Shown here: piece after piece, positions 17,331-61,263 of the stretch | Position numbering within the stretch: position 1 is the stretch's first letter | Layout: every line of letters starts with the position of its first letter | Source of the DNA: Candidatus Omnitrophota bacterium | GTDB taxonomy: Bacteria > Omnitrophota > Gorgyraeia > Gygaellales > Profunditerraquicolaceae | Direction: 5' to 3' | DNA length: 64,000 nucleotides | Assembly: GCA_041651035.1 (NCBI GenBank) | Contig: JBAZKC010000003.1 | Coordinates: forward strand, 69,153-133,152 | The notes under the pieces: generated by a model | Told to the model about the DNA's origin: nothing | The model's input: only the letters and a program-made list of their open reading frames with translations | Database searches by the model: none | Position numbers and translations under genes: made by a program

Positions 17331-18118
17331 AAAACAGGATAATCACTTCAACAATACTCATCGGAGTTATCGGAGGGGTTATATTTGTTGACTGGCTGTG
17401 CGGGTTATTAGTGGCTGCTTTTATTATCGCGGGTTTATACGAATTTTTCACCATGCTGGAGCGTAAAGGGATAAGCATATATAAATATGTCGGCATAGGC
17501 ATAGGCGCCATAATCCCTCTTTCTATAGTTTTCCGCTTTGAGCCTACCAGGAAATGGGAATTACTGTGTATTGTTCTAATATTACTATTCCTGATCATTA
17601 TGCAATTCAGGCGCCGCCAGAACAGCGGAGCTATAGTGGGGATCTCGACAACCATATTCGGCATAGTTTATGTTTCCTGGCTTCTTTCGTTTTTGATAAA
17701 GATAAGGTATCTTGAAGGAGGGCTGGGCCTGTTAGCTGCGGTATTGCTTATTACCAAATTAAGCGATATAGGCGCCTATCTTATAGGGATGCGTTTCGGG
17801 AAAACTCCTTTGATCCCCCGCATAAGCCCGAAGAAATCCGTGGAGGGTTCTATCGGGGGTCTGGTTTTCGGCGTATCAGGGTCCTTGGCGGCAAGTTCGT
17901 TCTTGCAGTTGTCATTTTTGCATACCATATCGCTGGGTATATGCTTAAGCGTTTTGGCTCAATTAGGGGATTTGTCCGAATCCTTGATGAAACGCGACTG
18001 CCAGGTAAAGGACTCCGGAAATATCTTCCCGGGTTTAGGCGGAGTTTTAGATACGATCGACAGCCTGCTCTTTACCGCTCCGGCATTTTATTTTTACATG
18101 GTACTTATTTTGAAATAA
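17324..18118 (+). CDS. cdsA: phosphatidate cytidylyltransferase
   Basis: Polytopic membrane protein with CTP_transf_1 signature SDIGAYLIGMRFGKTPLIPRISPKKSVEG. Confidence 0.9.
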   Translation: MLKNRIITSTILIGVIGGVIFVDWLCGLLVAAFIIAGLYEFFTMLERKGISIYKYVGIGIGAIIPLSIVFRFEPTRKWELLCIVLILLFLIIMQFRRRQNSGAIVGISTTIFGIVYVSWLLSFLIKIRYLEGGLGLLAAVLLITKLSDIGAYLIGMRFGKTPLIPRISPKKSVEGSIGGLVFGVSGSLAASSFLQLSFLHTISLGICLSVLAQLGDLSESLMKRDCQVKDSGNIFPGLGGVLDTIDSLLFTAPAFYFYMVLILK

Positions 18119-18302
18119 GTTATATGGCTCAAACTTACCCCGCCTCGTAAGATATGCCAAAATTCTCTTCGTTCCCTTTAAGGAACTCTGCTAATTTTGA
18201 CATATTCGGCGGGATAATTCGCAGACGCTTATTTAGCATCAAAGAGAGGCAGCTATAATTTACGTCGCTCCTTCGGAGTCTCCGTAAATTATCTGCTCAT
18301 TA
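18119..18302 (+). repeat. copy A of a repeated structured intergenic element (candidate cis-regulatory RNA/sRNA or MITE-like repeat)
   Basis: Shares with copy B (42539-42685) the motifs CTCGTAA, AAAATTCTCTT, a GTTCC/GGAAC hairpin and the 17-nt core TCGGCGGGATAATTCGC. Its long 3' hairpin arms (GCAG[CT]ATAATTTACG / CGTAAATTATCTGC) differ in sequence from B but stay complementary. Both copies end GCTCATTAA. Confidence 0.45.
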
Positions 18303-19457
18303 ATGAAACGCATTGCCATATTAGGTTCAACCGGTTCGATAGGCGTAAATGCTTTAAAAGTGATCAGGCATTTTCCCGACAGGTTTCAGGTCACAGGGCT
18401 AAGTACTAATTCCAGCATTGATATATTGTATGAGCAAATAAAAGAATTCCGCCCTTTGTTTGTCTGCGTCGGGGACGCAAAGGCGGGCAGGGAATTGAAG
18501 GGCAGGCTTAAACCCTCCACCAGGCTTTTAGTCGGAAAGGAAGGTTTGGAAGCCCTGGCCGCGGACGCAAAAGTTGATGAGGTCCTCTTGGCGATAAGCG
18601 GTTTTTGCGCGCTATCGCCTTTATTAAAGGCGATAGAATCCGGTAAGCAAGTCGCGCTGGCAAATAAAGAGGCATTAGTCGCGGCAGGGTCTATAGTAAT
18701 GAATAGGGCGGCTTCCCACAAAGTAAATATCATTCCTGTGGATAGCGAGCAATCAGCGATCTGGCAGTGCCTGGAAGGGGAGAGGCTAAGCGGGCTAAAG
18801 AAGATCTATCTTACCGCTTCAGGAGGGCCTTTTTGGCAGGCCCGGCGCCAAGACCTGAAAAGCGTTACCATAAAGAAGGTCTTGGATCATCCCAGGTGGA
18901 AAATGGGCAAGAAGATCAGCGTTGATTCCGCCAGCCTCATGAATAAAGGCTTAGAGCTTTTAGAGGCGATGTTTTTGTTTAATGTCGCAAGCGATAAAAT
19001 AGAGATAATTCTGCATCCGGAAGCCGTGGTTCATTCCATGGTGGAATTCATAGATGGATCTATATTGGCGCAATTGTCAGCTACCGATATGCGTATTCCC
19101 ATACAGTATGCTTTTTCCTATCCGGAGAGGCTGCCTAACGCCTCCAGTAGCATAGATTTTTGCAAATTGAGAAATTTGCATTTCCAAGCTCCGGACTTCA
19201 GGAAGTTCCCTTGTTTAGGCTTGGCTTACCGGGCCGCGGATGAACTGGGGACTATGCCAGCGGTTTTAAACGCCGCCAATGAAGTAAGCGTAGAAGCGTT
19301 TTTGAATAAGAAGATCAAGTTTGTTTCCATACCCAAAGTTATTGAAAAAGTCTTAGACAGCCACCGCAATAAGCTCGATCCTGATTTAAGCGATATATTG
19401 CATGCGGATGAATGGGCCAGACTTAAGGCCCATGACAATGTCAGGAGATTAAACTAA
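18303..19457 (+). CDS. dxr: 1-deoxy-D-xylulose 5-phosphate reductoisomerase
   Basis: IAILGSTGSIGVNAL N-terminus. 384 aa. No SD upstream; the start codon abuts element A. Confidence 0.95.
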   Translation: MKRIAILGSTGSIGVNALKVIRHFPDRFQVTGLSTNSSIDILYEQIKEFRPLFVCVGDAKAGRELKGRLKPSTRLLVGKEGLEALAADAKVDEVLLAISGFCALSPLLKAIESGKQVALANKEALVAAGSIVMNRAASHKVNIIPVDSEQSAIWQCLEGERLSGLKKIYLTASGGPFWQARRQDLKSVTIKKVLDHPRWKMGKKISVDSASLMNKGLELLEAMFLFNVASDKIEIILHPEAVVHSMVEFIDGSILAQLSATDMRIPIQYAFSYPERLPNASSSIDFCKLRNLHFQAPDFRKFPCLGLAYRAADELGTMPAVLNAANEVSVEAFLNKKIKFVSIPKVIEKVLDSHRNKLDPDLSDILHADEWARLKAHDNVRRLN

Positions 19458-39445: not shown

Positions 39446-42400
39446 ATGGCTAAAATACTTATCATTGGTAATTCCGCGGCGGGTTTTTCCACCTGCGAAA
39501 ATCTGCTTAAGGGATCTCCTGCCCAGGAAATAACCGTTATCTCTAAAGAAGAATATCCGGCGTATAAAAGGTACTTGCTTGCCGATTATTTAAGCGGATC
39601 GGTAAAGGATGATGAGCTTTTTTTATGCGGCGCGGATTATTATAAGAAAAATAATATAAATTTCCTGCCCGGATCAGAGGTGGAGAGGCTAGATACCAGG
39701 AAACAGAGGATAATTTTAAAAGGCAATACTAAGATCAATTATGATTATCTGGTTATTGCCTCAGGCTCAGTGATCAAACTTCCTGATATACCCGGTAAGG
39801 CCAAAGACGGAGTAGTGGCTTTTTATACGCTAAAAGACGCAAAGCTGGTTAAAGATAAATTGATGCTCGCTCAGACTGTATGTGTTATAGGACAGGATGA
39901 GGCGGCTTTAAAGATCGCTGAGGCAGCCGCGCTAAGAGGTAAAGAGGTCAAGATCGTCGCTTACGCGGATTTTGTTTATCATGGCCAGAATGACAAAATA
40001 GAGTTAATTTCCGGAGCGCAGCCGCAGGAATTTATAGGAGAAGGAGCTTTGCAGGCGTTGAAATTAAGCAGCGGTAAGGTTATCGGGACTAACCTGGTAT
40101 TAGTAGCCGGAGGCCGCATCCCTTCGACAGGTTTCTTAAAAGAGTCAGATATAAAAACCGATCAGGGTTATATTATAGTAGATGATAATATGCGCACGAA
40201 CCTTAAAAACGTGTTTGCCTGCGGCAGCGTTTGTAAAAAAGAAGGTTCTCCGGCAGCAGAAAAGACCTGGGAAGAATCTGTTCGTGAGGGAACTTTGGCC
40301 AGCCGGCATTTGATCAATCTGCTGGAAGGAAAAAGCGAAGGTGCTATGTCATTAGATGATTTAATTCAGCTTGCCGCTACAGGCAGGCAGGCAATATTAA
40401 AAGCCGCCCAAGATGCCGTAGAGGCGGCGATAAAAGAGAAAGGCGCCAGCCATAACATAGGATTTCCGGAAACTAATTATTATCTGCCTTTGATAAACGC
40501 GTTATTAAAATTAGAGGTCAAAGATTTAGGCGGATGCCTGGAGTCTTTAAAACAGATCAAGGACTTAGGCGATAATAAAGCAGCTCCTGGCAGCCTCAAC
40601 GTCGATTCTTTAGGCGGCCTGCTTAACCAGGGATTAGCAACTCTTCTTTGCGAAGAGATCTTAGCGGCGCTTAAATATTCAAATAAAGAGCATCCGCGGG
40701 AGAATTATGCCGGATTCCTGCCGGATACATTATTAAGGTCGCTGGGTATCCAGCTTGTAGATGGCAGGATAGCCGGTATTGCCGTAATATTAGGCGCGGC
40801 TCCTGATGAAGATTCGGCAGTGCGCCTGATAAGGGATTTCCAAAGCAGGAGCATCGTGAGTATCCTGGCGGGGAATATAGACGGCAGGAGCCTGAAGAAG
40901 CAGTTAGAGAGCAAAAATATAGAAATAGGTTTGGATAATTATATAGTGGCTTTAGGCGAAGATTACCTATCCGCGATTTACGCGGTCAACTGGGCGGTAA
41001 GGGCGCCGTTAATGTATGGCGGGATAAAAAGCGGGCAGTGGGGAGACATTCTCAAATACACCCGGCAGAAAGTCCCCGCGTTTGTCCTGCTCCTGGGGCA
41101 TGTAGACGAGGTTTTAGCGGCTACGGGCCTGGGGGCTTTAGCCATGGGTTTTCCTATTATTACAGATTTAGATATTCCCCAGCTGGGCAAGATCGATACT
41201 ACTTTATTTGAAGCCCTGGTCACGGAAAAGGATTATACGAAACTGGCGGCAAAATGCATAGAGATAAGAGGGCTTAAGGTAAAGATCACCCGCGTTCCCG
41301 TGCCGGTACCTTACGCGGCGGCATTTGAAGGCGAGCGTGTCAGGAAAGAACAATTGCATGCTGAGTTCGGAGGAAAGAGCAGCACGGCTTTTGAATATTT
41401 GACTACTAAAGAAACCGGCGCGGTTGAAGACGGTAAGGTAGAATTGATAGGCCCGGATATAGATTGCCTTGAAAAAGGCAGTAAGTCTATGCCGCTGGCG
41501 ATAGTAGTTGAGGTAGCCGGACGCAAGATGCAAAAGGATTTTGAGCCTATCCTGGAACGCCAGATACACCGTTTTATGAATTACGCTATGGGCCTGATGC
41601 ATATCGGCCAGCGCGATATGAACTGGATCAGGATAAGTAAAGATGCCTTTAATAAGGGCTTCAGGCTAAAACATATCGGCGTGATACTGCACGCCATGTT
41701 ACATCAGGAATACGGCGCTATCGTGGACAAAGTGCAGGTCAGGCTTTATACGCGGCAAGCTGACCTGGAGGGATTATTAGCCGGAGTAAAGAAGGTTTAT
41801 GATGAGCGCGATGAACGCATAAGCGGCATGGTAGATGAGAGCGTGGATACGTTTTATTCGTGTTTATTATGCCAGTCATTTGCCCCTAATCACGTTTGCG
41901 TTGTTACGCCTGAACGCTTAGGATTATGCGGCGCGTATTCCTGGCTGGACGCGAAAGCCTCTTTTGAGATCACTCCTACAGGGCCGAATCAACCCATAAT
42001 AAAAGGCCCTATACGCGATGAGAGGTTGGGCCAGTGGGATAATATCAACGAATTCGTGGCACAGAAGTCCAATAAGACTGTTGAGAGTGTGAGCATGTAT
42101 TCACTAATGGTAGCTCCCCAGTCTTCCTGCGGTTGTTTTGAGTGTATCGTCGCGATAATCCCGGAGGCAAACGGGGTGATGGTTGTGCACCGCGATCATT
42201 CGGGCCAGACGCCATGCGGGATGACCTTTACCGCTTTAGCCGGATCGGTAGGCGGAGGGATCCAGACTCCGGGTTTCCTGGGTGTGGGCAAATTATATAT
42301 ATTAAGCAAGAAATTTATCTTGGCTGAGGGCGGCCTTAAACGCGTTGTCTGGATGCCTAAGGAATTAAAAGAGGCCCTAGGTGATAAATTGAAGAAACGG

Positions 42401-42532
42401 GCGGAAGAGCTGGGAAGCCCGGATCTGATTGATAAGATCGCGGACGAAACCATAGCTACGACAACAGAGGATTTGCTAAGGTTCCTGGAAAAAGTAAGCC
42501 ATCCCGCCCTGGGTATGGAACCGATAATGTAA
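39446..42532 (+). CDS. fusion protein: N-terminal FAD-type pyridine nucleotide-disulfide oxidoreductase-like domain (~300 aa) + full-length bacterial acetyl-CoA synthase (AcsB, CODH/ACS beta subunit, ~728 aa)
   Basis: N-terminus KILIIGNSAAG..YPAYKRYLL (FAD Rossmann, ferredoxin-reductase/NirB-like). C-terminal 728 aa carry AcsB motifs GFPETNYYLPLI, GRKMQKDFEPILERQIHRFMNY, A-cluster cysteines CLLCQSFAPNHVCVVTPERLGLCGAYSWLDAKASFEI and SSCGCFEC, and C-terminus IDKIADETIATT..HPALGMEPIM. Confidence 0.8.
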   Translation: MAKILIIGNSAAGFSTCENLLKGSPAQEITVISKEEYPAYKRYLLADYLSGSVKDDELFLCGADYYKKNNINFLPGSEVERLDTRKQRIILKGNTKINYDYLVIASGSVIKLPDIPGKAKDGVVAFYTLKDAKLVKDKLMLAQTVCVIGQDEAALKIAEAAALRGKEVKIVAYADFVYHGQNDKIELISGAQPQEFIGEGALQALKLSSGKVIGTNLVLVAGGRIPSTGFLKESDIKTDQGYIIVDDNMRTNLKNVFACGSVCKKEGSPAAEKTWEESVREGTLASRHLINLLEGKSEGAMSLDDLIQLAATGRQAILKAAQDAVEAAIKEKGASHNIGFPETNYYLPLINALLKLEVKDLGGCLESLKQIKDLGDNKAAPGSLNVDSLGGLLNQGLATLLCEEILAALKYSNKEHPRENYAGFLPDTLLRSLGIQLVDGRIAGIAVILGAAPDEDSAVRLIRDFQSRSIVSILAGNIDGRSLKKQLESKNIEIGLDNYIVALGEDYLSAIYAVNWAVRAPLMYGGIKSGQWGDILKYTRQKVPAFVLLLGHVDEVLAATGLGALAMGFPIITDLDIPQLGKIDTTLFEALVTEKDYTKLAAKCIEIRGLKVKITRVPVPVPYAAAFEGERVRKEQLHAEFGGKSSTAFEYLTTKETGAVEDGKVELIGPDIDCLEKGSKSMPLAIVVEVAGRKMQKDFEPILERQIHRFMNYAMGLMHIGQRDMNWIRISKDAFNKGFRLKHIGVILHAMLHQEYGAIVDKVQVRLYTRQADLEGLLAGVKKVYDERDERISGMVDESVDTFYSCLLCQSFAPNHVCVVTPERLGLCGAYSWLDAKASFEITPTGPNQPIIKGPIRDERLGQWDNINEFVAQKSNKTVESVSMYSLMVAPQSSCGCFECIVAIIPEANGVMVVHRDHSGQTPCGMTFTALAGSVGGGIQTPGFLGVGKLYILSKKFILAEGGLKRVVWMPKELKEALGDKLKKRAEELGSPDLIDKIADETIATTTEDLLRFLEKVSHPALGMEPIM

Positions 42533-42538
42533 TAGTAA

Positions 42539-42685
42539 GTTATGCGTTATCCCGTCTCGTAAAACACATAAAAATTCTCTTTAGTTTCCTTCGGAAACTT
42601 TGATAATTTTTATGTACTCGGCGGGATAATTCGCGCATATAACTTACGTTGCGCTTCGCACGAACGTAAGTTATGCGCTCATTAA
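42539..42685 (+). repeat. copy B of the repeated structured intergenic element
   Basis: Same motif order as copy A: CTCGTAA, AAAATTCTCTT, AGTTTCC-TTC-GGAAACT hairpin, core TCGGCGGGATAATTCGC (42618-42634). Long 3' hairpin CGCATATAACTTACGTT / AACGTAAGTTATGCG, ending GCTCATTAA. Its 5' boundary GTAAGTTATGCG is a 12/12 direct repeat of the hairpin's right arm. Confidence 0.45.
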
Positions 42686-42693
42686 ATTTTTCC

Positions 42694-42721
42694 TTGACGA
42701 AGCGCGTTTACAGTGTATAAT
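42694..42721 (+). promoter_or_regulatory. sigma70-like promoter with extended -10 (TTGACG-16 nt-TGTATAAT) for the TPR gene
   Basis: TTGACG at 42694-42699, TGTATAAT at 42714-42721, 13 nt before the 42735 start. Confidence 0.5.
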
Positions 42722-42734
42722 ATTTTCAAAACAA

Positions 42735-43538
42735 ATGCCTATTAATTCCTTCCCAGATAGCATAAGAAAAACAGCCATTACACTATTTGTTTTGGGTATT
42801 ACTTCTTTTCTTTACGCCGCGCCGCAGCAGCCGAGCTTGGATTTATCCCGTGATTATGGCTACCCTGACCTGCTTTCTCCACAGGAAGAAAGAGACCTGT
42901 CTAGATTGCAGAAAGAGGCAAGGCTGTATAGGGCTCAGGGGCTGGAATTACAGCATCTGGGTAACATTGATGACGCGTTTACCCTATATCAAAAAGCCGT
43001 AGAGTTGGATCCTTCGTATGCCATAGCTTTTAACGATCTGGGTGTAATATACGAGGCAAGAGGAGCGCTTGAGCAGGCAGAGGAGTGTTATCTAAAGGCC
43101 ATAAATATCGAGCCGGATTATATGAGCGCCTATACGAATCTGGCATTGCTATACGAGAACAAGCGCGATCTTGGCAAGGCTGCCGTTTATTGGCAGAAAA
43201 GGGCGGAGTTAGGTTTACCTAATGATCCCTGGACACAGAAGGCAGAGAAGCGCCTGGAAGACATAAAACTTACTTTATCAAATGATCCTTCCACTGGAAA
43301 TGCCCAGGAACGGGAGGTCATAGAATTATTAAGAGATGTGGCGACGCAGAAGTCCGCTGCCAGGCAGGATGATAAAGGGCTCTCCCGTAACCACTTTGAT
43401 AAAGCAAAAAGGAGTTATCTTAAGGGTGATTACGCGACAGCCATAAAAGAAGCGTTAGATGCCCAGCAGTTGGATCCTTCTAATCGCCAGATCGAAGATT
43501 TTATTGATAAGACCCGGACAAGGGCCTTATCAAAATAA
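42735..43538 (+). CDS. secreted tetratricopeptide-repeat protein
   Basis: Signal peptide. At least 4 TPR units (AFTLYQKAVELDPSYAIAFNDLGVIY..., AEECYLKAINIEPDYMSAYTNLALLY...). Confidence 0.75.
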   Translation: MPINSFPDSIRKTAITLFVLGITSFLYAAPQQPSLDLSRDYGYPDLLSPQEERDLSRLQKEARLYRAQGLELQHLGNIDDAFTLYQKAVELDPSYAIAFNDLGVIYEARGALEQAEECYLKAINIEPDYMSAYTNLALLYENKRDLGKAAVYWQKRAELGLPNDPWTQKAEKRLEDIKLTLSNDPSTGNAQEREVIELLRDVATQKSAARQDDKGLSRNHFDKAKRSYLKGDYATAIKEALDAQQLDPSNRQIEDFIDKTRTRALSK

Positions 43539-47595: not shown

Positions 47596-48223
47596 AAAAC
47601 AGATTATCCTGGGGCTTACCGGCAGTTTTGGCAGCGGTAAGACCACGGTTGCCGGTATGTTTAGGTCTCTGGGCGCCTATATCATAGACGCCGACAGCCT
47701 GGCGCATGGCTGCTTAAAGCCGGGAGGGCCAGGTTATAAAAAAATAATCAACGCGTTCGGCAAGGGTATCCTTTGCGGGAATAAAACCATTGACCGTAAG
47801 CAATTAGCCAGGGTGGTATTCAATAACAGGCCCCTGTTATTGAAACTAAACGGTATCATACATCCGCAGGTTATCAGAGCCATAGGGAATAAAATAAGAT
47901 CCCTAAAGGCAGGGGTTATCGTTTTAGATGCCCCTCTTTTGTTTGAGGCCGGTTTAAATAAGGCCGTAGATAAAATAATCGTAGTAAAAACAAACAGGAA
48001 AGAACAAGTCAAAAGGATCTATAGCAAGGGTTTATTTACTAAGGCGGATATTTTAAAACGTATCAAATCCCAGATTCCCCTGGCGCGAAAATCGCGTTTA
48101 GCGGATTTTATAATAGACAATAATGGTACGATACAGGAAACCAGGAAACAAGCAGCAGATATTTGGAAATCTCTTGCGGCCGTAAAGCGGGTAGGCGGCT
48201 TCCGGGGATCAATCCGCCCCTGA
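47573..48223 (+). CDS. coaE: dephospho-CoA kinase
   Basis: ILGLTGSFGSGKTTVA P-loop and IIDADSLAH. Confidence 0.85.
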   Translation: MKRRKQNKKQIILGLTGSFGSGKTTVAGMFRSLGAYIIDADSLAHGCLKPGGPGYKKIINAFGKGILCGNKTIDRKQLARVVFNNRPLLLKLNGIIHPQVIRAIGNKIRSLKAGVIVLDAPLLFEAGLNKAVDKIIVVKTNRKEQVKRIYSKGLFTKADILKRIKSQIPLARKSRLADFIIDNNGTIQETRKQAADIWKSLAAVKRVGGFRGSIRP

Positions 48224-48252
48224 TCTTTAGCGGGCTCATTTAGGAGGATGAC

Positions 48253-60936: not shown

Positions 60937-61263
60937 ATGCGCAAGGTTTCCGGCTTCTGCGATTATTTTGTTATCGCCAGCGCGTTGTCATTGAGGCAGG
61001 TGAATGCCATAGCCTCAGGCATACAAGAAGACCTGTCCCGCCCTTCATCAGGGCATAAAGAAATGCCGGATGAAAGGCGGGATATAGATAAAATAAGATG
61101 CCTCTCGAAGGTTTCCCCCACCGATGAATCAGGATGGGTGGTTTTAGATTACGCCTCTGTTGTGGCCCATATATTTTACAAACCGATGAGAGAATTTTAT
61201 TCTTTAGAGCGTTTATGGGGTGATGCCAAGAGAGTCAGTATTCCCAGAGGCGCTAGAAAATAA
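60937..61263 (+). CDS. rsfS: ribosomal silencing factor RsfS (Iojap family); true start probably upstream at a non-ATG codon
   Basis: DYFVIASALSLRQVNAIASGIQEDL core. The conserved N-terminal segment (TALRIAAVAKAKKAQKVIILD) is encoded in-frame upstream of the first ATG, after a GGAGGGAG SD at 60844-60851. Confidence 0.75.
   Translation: MRKVSGFCDYFVIASALSLRQVNAIASGIQEDLSRPSSGHKEMPDERRDIDKIRCLSKVSPTDESGWVVLDYASVVAHIFYKPMREFYSLERLWGDAKRVSIPRGARK

Follow-up and report, generated by a model that had tools for sequence, protein, structure and literature searches.

The region described here lies in the window, by which we mean the whole 64,000-nucleotide stretch of DNA analysed, between the gene for acetyl-CoA synthase (ACS), whose stop codon is at 42530-42532, and the TPR and polA genes. 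The sequence that we call copy B spans 42533-42685, and a second copy, copy A, occupies 18119-18302 on the + strand at the cdsA/dxr junction. The original prediction had taken the two as one element with the same motifs in the same order, and this is borne out: copies A and B have in common a two-hairpin architecture, an invariant 17-mer core and the tail GCTCATTA, and a covariance model finds both. All of the described motifs are present in copy B, namely CTCGTAA (42556-42562), AAAATTCTCTT (42571-42581), the apex hairpin AGTTTCC/GGAAACT (42583-42599), the core TCGGCGGGATAATTCGC (42618-42634), the terminal hairpin with its 2-nt bulge (42633-42678) and the tail GCTCATTAA (42677-42685). The window contains the core at two positions only, 18206 and 42618, a count that 0 of 100 shuffles reach. 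The copies are 77% identical; copy B had been said to lack about 30 nt, and what is missing is a 28-nt linker insert plus a further 8 nt on the 5' side, both present in copy A. The 12-nt GTAAGTTATGCG is repeated exactly, as had been reported, at 42535-42546 and 42666-42677, the latter one base away from the position first given (42665-42676). Its first copy begins 3 nt past the ACS stop and, contrary to what had been proposed, does not overlap the ACS frame. The features of the three places in the window that concern us are as follows.

42533..42549, + strand: extra 5' segment of copy B, TAGTAAGTTATGCGTTA, holding a 12-nt copy of the right arm of hairpin 2 (42535-42546)
42550..42684, + strand: canonical body of copy B, 135 nt from TCCC to CTCATTA, defined by the L149/L232 polymorphism and flank conservation profiles
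42546..42630, + strand: hairpin 1 of copy B, from the fold and family covariation
42546-42556 pairing with 42620-42630, + strand: P1 of hairpin 1, from the fold
Between P1 and P2, + strand: internal loop of hairpin 1, carrying CUCGUAA, from the fold
42566-42579 pairing with 42602-42615, + strand: P2 of hairpin 1, with the apex at 42583-42599, from the fold
42618..42634, + strand: invariant core TCGGCGGGATAATTCGC, comprising the 3' strand of P1 and the 5' strand of the base of hairpin 2
42633..42678, + strand: hairpin 2 of copy B, left arm GCGCATATAACTTACG and right arm CGTAAGTTATGCGC, from the fold and covariation
42677..42685, + strand: conserved tail GCTCATTAA, the last base of the element being the A of ATTA at 42684
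42694..42721, + strand: sigma-70-type promoter of the TPR/polA genes, TTGACG-16-TATAAT, 11/12 positions, outside the element
18119..18302, + strand: copy A, 184 nt inserted at the cdsA/dxr stop-start overlap, canonical body 18138-18302
48164..48242, + strand: copy C, what remains of a decayed copy between coaE and rho, GGGGATCAATCCGC ... GGGCTCATTTA, then an SD

Folded as RNA, copy B forms two adjacent hairpin domains (-55.6 kcal/mol, z = -8.3) and copy A adopts the same fold (z = -3.7). Within the core region only 0-1 nt separates the helix of hairpin 1 from that of hairpin 2, and since the helices abut, the 5' and 3' ends of the element are brought together. The family model extends hairpin 2 by pairing UAAU (42627-42630) with AUUA (42681-42684) across a UC/UC internal loop. 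The original prediction also let the 5' repeat pair, alternatively, with hairpin 2 through its left arm; this pairing is rejected: it costs 5.8 kcal/mol in copy B (-49.8 versus -55.6 kcal/mol), is far worse in copy A and is absent from most copies of the family. The element has no coding capacity, and neither a check of copy B for direct and inverted repeats nor the flank profiles revealed terminal inverted repeats. A covariance model search of the window returned copies A and B as the only intact copies (copy B matching at 42545-42686 with 115.9 bits, E = 2e-25); the window also holds the decayed remnant at 48164-48242. Elsewhere in the window, a solitary hairpin at 61035-61087 (GTCCCGCC...GGCGGGATA) resembles P1 of the element and is not continued by the ATTCG of the core, hairpin 2 or the tail; it lies within a 108-aa ORF call (60937-61263), gives weak model matches on both strands (E ~0.1-1) and could be a solo left half or a chance likeness.

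No match to Rfam was obtained for the window or for the copy B region at gathering or at permissive/E-value thresholds. Searching with the 17-mer identified genuine copies in nine Omnitrophota MAG loci and in four contigs of 'bacterium DP16D_bin.15', besides ~100 chance or coding matches, and the consensus of 14 copies has 37 pairs, 19 of which show double-sided changes. Further copies were gathered by scanning metagenomes for the core, a gap and the tail and then by covariance model searches, as the original prediction had suggested, which brought in ~180 from Omnitrophota MAGs, Smithella-type contigs and a phage structural module. For 128 distinct copies the paired fraction of cells is 94.1% and falls to 32-49% on sliding the partners, and double-sided compensatory changes occur at 35 of the 37 base pairs; these figures lean towards the model, to which the alignment was fitted, and the margin is large. 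In helices 1 and 2, 17 of 19 pairs change on both sides, and in helices 3 and 4 all 18 pairs covary, with the UAAU/AUUA base passing from A-U to G-C in 15 copies. The consensus consists of P1 (CCCGCC/GGCGGG), an internal loop with CUC(G/A)UAA and a variable P2, followed after 0-1 nt by a second long hairpin based on UAAU/AUUA, the UC/UC loop and a G-C pair, and then the tail CUCAUUA; at the DNA level the core GGGATAATTCG and the tail CTCATTA are invariant.

Two forms of the element can be distinguished. The long one, 112-210 nt, has P2 and comes from Omnitrophota-type contigs; the short one, ~75-90 nt, has hairpin 1 reduced to a stem-loop, and one of its hosts is a Smithella sp. The family thus spans two bacterial phyla and a phage, and diverged copies number in the tens per genome. 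Its pattern occurs in 21 IMG/VR contigs. One of these, L223 (= L261/L262), is a phage structural module encoding a capsid protein (PF25209) and a large lectin-like protein, in which six short copies fill the intergenic spacers; five of the six are antisense to the genes, the TAA stops of the genes are supplied by the element tail, and one 5' end contributes to the next SD. Neither copy B nor the short variant had a BLAST match in annotated collections of phages and plasmids, and nothing relevant emerged from a literature search on repeats of Omnitrophota, Smithella or Syntrophus. The family is previously unnamed and apparently undescribed.

Comparison with relatives of the window genome, a Candidatus Omnitrophota MAG, the nearest of which in the collections have 66-78% protein identity (best 68% for ACS and 78% for Dxr), revealed precise empty sites for copies A and B, of the kind that the original prediction had proposed to look for; these come from such distant relatives and not from close strains. 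Five contigs with the gene order MTHFR-ACS-TPR-polA (ACS 66-68% identical) have an ACS-TPR spacer of only 28-61 nt, and in the closest syntenic relatives this spacer reads TAA(A)CATTTTTCTTGACG-N17-TATAAT, which is the promoter found after copy B in the window. The TPR promoter had been predicted correctly, as had its consequence that copy B sits on the ACS side: the promoter follows the ACS stop directly in relatives that lack the element, and copy B, placed between that stop and a pre-existing promoter, belongs to the ACS transcript. At the copy A locus, four contigs (Dxr 69-78% identical) carry the cdsA/dxr overlap ATGA, ...TTGAAATGAAACGC, exactly at the position of copy A, where the window reads ...TTGAAATAAGTTAT...GCTCATTAATGAAACGC, an insertion of 184 nt whose junction is ambiguous by 3 nt (AAT). 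The ends of copy A re-create a TAA stop and an ATG start, and dxr in the window starts directly after the copy A tail with no SD. Judged from these comparisons of sequence, both window copies are insertions. As observations on the same locus, the promoter ATTTTTC(C)TTGACG-N16/17-TATAAT (window 42686-42734) is conserved directly past the ACS stop in L238-L240, and no terminator separates the ACS and TPR/polA units; the ACS of the window lineage (39446-42532) is a protein of ~1028 aa in which a PF07992 pyridine-nucleotide-disulfide-oxidoreductase domain is fused to the CdhC/ACS domains, and some of the homologues among P0039, P0114 and P0115 have intein/LAGLIDADG domains (PF14890, PF14528) instead.

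The ortholog of copy C in L241/L242 is an intact copy lying between coaE and rho, and both carry the rare GGGATCAAT variant of the core; in L238 the site is empty and the two genes overlap. The fold of copy C is no better than that of shuffled sequences (z = +1.4). Taken together, the comparisons at copies A and B and at coaE-rho lead to the conclusion that the distribution is patchy and lineage-specific and that a dead copy loses its structure. Copy C was missed by the covariance model, and the coaE frame appears to run into it as far as a TGA in the former hairpin 2.

The exact ends of the element were obtained from an all-against-all comparison of loci, which yielded a single case of presence and absence between near-identical sequences. 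The flanks of L149 and L232 show 99.2-99.9% identity along 0.7 and 1.8 kb, and a difference of exactly 79 nt separates the two, the inserted segment being TCCCTGCC...GGCTCACTA (TCCC...CTCACTA) and the empty site ...GCAGCTCG|AAGCGTAAG.... The junction has zero ambiguity, no target duplication and no shared crossover core; the ends of the element are thus the T of TCCC, the first base of hairpin 1, and the A of CTCA(T/C)TA, with which the flank conservation profiles agree. These ends fall inside the boundaries originally drawn for copy B. This junction argues against DDE-type duplication and against conservative recombination of the overlap type. The target was itself the inside of hairpin 2 of an oppositely oriented copy, and of 49 loci in this subfamily ~29 have YTYG as left flank and 22 have AAGCGT as right flank, a preference which indicates that insertion is site-selective. 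Left flanks in the Omnitrophota subfamily are diverse, mostly NNTA or NNTG.

Other junctions could be reconstructed at greater divergence. In L046, compared with L123/L132, two fused copies lie at GCAAAT^GAAAAAAG with the ambiguity AAAT, the flanking proteins being ~50% identical; in L120, compared with L155 (84% identical), a reverse-oriented divergent copy lies at a TAG stop with the ambiguity CTA. Three of the four reconstructed junctions therefore carry a 3-4 nt ambiguity (AAT, AAAT, CTA), and a short TSD at these is possible. Both of the stop/start insertions are at AAAT^GA. Reconstruction gives two targets, AAAT^G where stop and start overlap and YTYG^AAGCGT. The octamer TAAGTTAT, which had been put forward as the preferred site, is absent from every empty site and is rejected as a target. 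No left-end guide segment was identified, and a test for covariation between core and left flank gave nothing; UAAU as a guide for the left flank was discarded by eye, the left flanks of the GATAGT/CACTA variant copies not changing in step.

Tandem, fused, truncated and nested copies are common (L046, L073, L096, L138, L186, L190, L228, L149), and clusters in alternating orientation, in the style of REP sequences, occur at L203 and L135. This bears on the 12-nt repeat of copy B, which had been read as a TIR/TSD-like boundary. The repeat segment is missing from all empty sites of relatives and from most copies, and is rejected as a TSD or TIR-like boundary; at least 8 nt of an element's own right arm is found upstream in only ~9 of 147 copies, mostly because a complete, tandem or truncated copy precedes. 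The 5' junction of copy B, GTTATGCG-TTA|TCCC, has the same form as the tandem junction GTTATGCTGT-TCA|TCCC of L046 and those of L011 and L073, and further analogous tandem junctions are found in L186 and L228. Copy A has a similar imperfect piece (TAAGTTATATGGCTCA versus TAAATTATCTGCTCA) in its extra 5' segment, 18119-18137, which resembles the right arm and the beginning of the tail. From this resemblance we infer that the 5' pieces of copies A and B are footprints of the 3' arm of an earlier or tandem copy.

With respect to genes, 36 long-form copies are co-oriented with the downstream gene and 10 opposed, and for the short form the numbers are 60 and 45, counts that take in a few duplicate contigs. 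In ~25 long copies GGAGG or ATG follows within 0-3 nt of the tail, and in many reverse-oriented copies the TTA of the tail is the TAA stop of a convergent gene; copies fill whole intercistronic spacers in either orientation, and three of them (copy B, L040 and L012) lie just upstream of a -35 box. Such adjacency to SD, start and stop would be expected if only insertions between stop and RBS survive, and it fits an RNA role too. Clustering of 667 ORFs from element-bearing loci gave only housekeeping families, with no recurrent gene beside the copies. There is likewise no recurrent transposase adjoining them, which marks the element as non-autonomous. These loci, ~1.1 Mb of element-bearing DNA, were searched by tblastn with three queries, IS200 TnpA, an environmental Y1 protein and the RAYT of E. 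coli, and with a pattern for the TnpB zinc ribbon; no Y1, RAYT or TnpB homologue was found. Two matches to the 17-mer do lie inside IS200-like Y1 transposase genes, in two unrelated genomes, of Acidobacteriota and Opitutales (L059 7914-7930, L061 1593-1609), where it encodes the conserved motif Y(I/L)GGIIR; we take these for chance loci, probably a coincidence of conserved peptide and codon choice, if a curious one in view of the mechanism proposed below.

In its behaviour the element comes closest to IS200/IS605 PATEs and to REP/BIME sequences, and in its placement in transcripts it is like ERIC-type repeats. The hallmarks of the IS200/IS605 group are the lack of a TSD, a scarless junction, subterminal palindromes and gene-less PATE derivatives (Meers 2023, PMC10055086). 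Like PATEs, the derivatives moved by the Y1 HUH transposase TnpA, the element has no gene and no TIR, a hairpin near each end on one strand (hairpin 1 at the 5' end, hairpin 2 7 nt from the 3' end), scarless presence and absence with no target duplication in L149/L232, a short left-flank motif specific to the subfamily with a conserved right-end motif, and tandem insertion beside existing copies. It differs from them in that no cognate TnpA/TnpB with the element's ends occurs in the element-bearing loci, in that its two hairpins are dissimilar with a single invariant core between them, and in the 3-4 nt ambiguity of some junctions; unlike IS608, hairpin 1 begins at the first base, with no left-end guide segment. 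With REP/BIME and REPIN sequences, whose RAYT is a Y1 HUH transposase present once per genome, it shares high-copy intergenic palindromes, compensatory stem changes and alternating-orientation clusters, and here too the gene for the enzyme would lie elsewhere in the genome, its product acting in trans. However, the element lacks the GTAG head and has no RAYT in its loci, its units contain two distinct hairpins and measure 75-210 nt against 20-40 nt, and its core and tail are conserved across phyla and in phage.

ERIC/IRU, YPAL and Correia-type repeats are ~100-150 nt long and lie in transcribed intergenic DNA by stop and start codons, with size variants that arise from internal insertions at fixed points; their ends meet on folding, and they can alter mRNA stability. 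Such a repeat is one long hairpin, bounded by terminal inverted repeats and a TA duplication. The element resembles them in size, intergenic position, internal-insertion size variants and meeting ends, but consists of two side-by-side hairpins with no TIR and with no duplication at the exact junction.

We consider that copy B is probably a non-autonomous mobile DNA element of ~135 nt, of a single-strand type that is HUH, IS200/IS605-PATE- or REP-like, belonging to a family of small gene-less two-hairpin elements. That it is mobile and non-autonomous, as the original prediction had allowed on a DNA-level reading, we hold with high confidence given the empty sites in relatives and the exact L149/L232 polymorphism; in the ssDNA/HUH mechanism our confidence is moderate to low. 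The family combines precise insertion and loss, site selectivity and tandem or nested pile-up with compensatory changes that preserve the helices, so that the alternative originally posed, in which compensatory changes would mean RNA and empty sites a MITE, does not divide the evidence: both are observed together. Copy B would have inserted between the ACS stop codon and the existing TPR/polA promoter, leaving at its 5' side 17 nt of an earlier copy. The element would move as single-stranded DNA, its two hairpins, core and tail forming the structure recognised by a trans-encoded HUH-type enzyme (IS200/IS605 TnpA- or RAYT-like) that would cut at the left flank and after ...ATTA and rejoin the ends scarlessly; selection for transposition competence in master copies would account for the covariation. 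This proposal is drawn from the scarless junctions, the hairpins at both ends on one strand, the left-flank motif of the subfamily and tandem insertion. Against it stand hairpin 1 starting at base 1, where the IS608 layout would need space for a left-end guide, the conservation of core and tail across phyla, unusual for REP-like repeats, the 3-4 nt junction ambiguities, and the enzyme search, which returned no Y1, RAYT or TnpB in ~1.1 Mb of element-bearing DNA. A further point is the mild asymmetry of G-U (121) over A-C (78), which is dominated by one subfamily and does not decide the functional strand. Copy B would be transcribed passively as the 3' end of the ACS operon mRNA, with an effect that is probably neutral or a passive gain in stability, and the joined ends plausibly let copies such as A sit in translationally coupled junctions without killing the downstream gene.

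The main rival to mobility as the explanation is a function of the RNA for the host: a cis-acting structured module, spread by duplication or transposition and then kept by selection locus by locus, which at operon junctions and in 5' or 3' UTRs would preserve translational coupling, block exonucleases or give a processing site. The strong covariation speaks for such a module, as do the excess of Omnitrophota-type copies co-oriented with the downstream gene, the ~25 copies set directly before GGAGG or ATG, the abutting helices that juxtapose an upstream stop with a downstream start, the SD-less dxr of the window and the core and tail sequence that can still be recognised in two distant lineages at the orthologous coaE-rho site. 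Yet copy B precedes a promoter and not an SD, the short variant and the phage copies lie in both orientations, the neighbours are unrelated housekeeping genes, the orthologous remnant copy C has lost the fold, and copies pile up nested and truncated; SD adjacency, moreover, is expected anyway if only stop-to-SD insertions survive. We regard this reading as rather unlikely, though it is to be taken seriously. Decidedly less easy to accept, and in our view doubtful, is a broader proposal in which the family is a cross-phylum, phage-borne class of ssDNA elements, its enzyme not yet linked, whose architecture has been selected as 'operon-compatible' and possibly doubles as an RNA device for coupling or stability. 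Coaxially abutting hairpins would then reunite the upstream stop with the downstream SD or start, and the re-creation of TAA stops and ATG starts by the element ends would open overlapping essential pairs like cdsA/dxr to colonization. A bolder version, in which the element RNA is precisely removed from the transcript, has no support.

A classical MITE, moved by a DDE transposase with a 3-4 bp target duplication at A/T-rich sites, could draw on the ambiguities AAT, AAAT and CTA at three reconstructed sites and on the TTA...TTA that flanks many copies; but terminal inverted repeats are lacking, the only junction between near-identical sequences shows no duplication, and the left flanking TTA pairs with the invariant core and varies (TTG, GTA, TCA), making this origin very improbable. 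An independent small RNA gene, equipped with a promoter and a terminator of its own, would suit a compact, stable and conserved intergenic structure, but is extremely hard to reconcile with a copy that begins 3 nt past the ACS stop, is preceded by no promoter and is followed by no terminator-like site, or with tens of diverged copies per genome that take up entire intercistronic spacers in either orientation. A site for conservative site-specific recombination, integron-attC-like or other, that marks the boundaries of gene cassettes would be an imperfect palindrome directly after stops and before the next SD, recognised by structure more than by sequence and with extrahelical bases; we find it scarcely credible here, the flanks being core genes in conserved synteny (cdsA-dxr, ACS-TPR-polA, coaE-rho), the R''/R' consensus (RYYYAAC/GTTRRRY) unmatched, integrase context absent and no shared crossover core present at the exact junction. 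Nor is copy B a riboswitch or other cis-regulatory RNA family, given the lack of an Rfam match, the unrelated neighbour genes and the two orientations, or an intrinsic terminator: a scan of 42300-42900 and 17900-18500 gave no terminator-like site, and the U run of copy B begins 10 nt beyond the stem.

Read as insertions, two odd intergenic structures of the window genome are explained and should not be annotated as riboswitches, sRNAs or terminators; copy B matters mainly as a new kind of genomic parasite and not as a regulator of ACS. The repeat family is now defined by exact ends and a covariance model, and is frequent in uncultivated Omnitrophota and syntrophic Smithella and found also in phage genomes, so that the model can serve in MAG annotation, strain typing and the spotting of assembly breaks. 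It raises the concrete question of which trans-acting enzyme recognises a core and tail common to two phyla, and provides a natural test case for the tolerance of structured insertions inside translationally coupled junctions of essential genes.

Two further arrangements were seen among the loci. In L190 (1887-2223) three short copies stand head-to-tail, repeating every 126 nt; a 41-nt hairpin module comes after each copy, and the first two have the tail altered to CTCATGA. In L245, a relative of the window genome, an unrelated insertion of ~110-124 nt with its own palindrome GATACATGACACTTGACAC...GTGTCAAGTATC (1375-1498) lies between a GH57 gene and uppS; it is absent from L243 and stands outside the family studied here.
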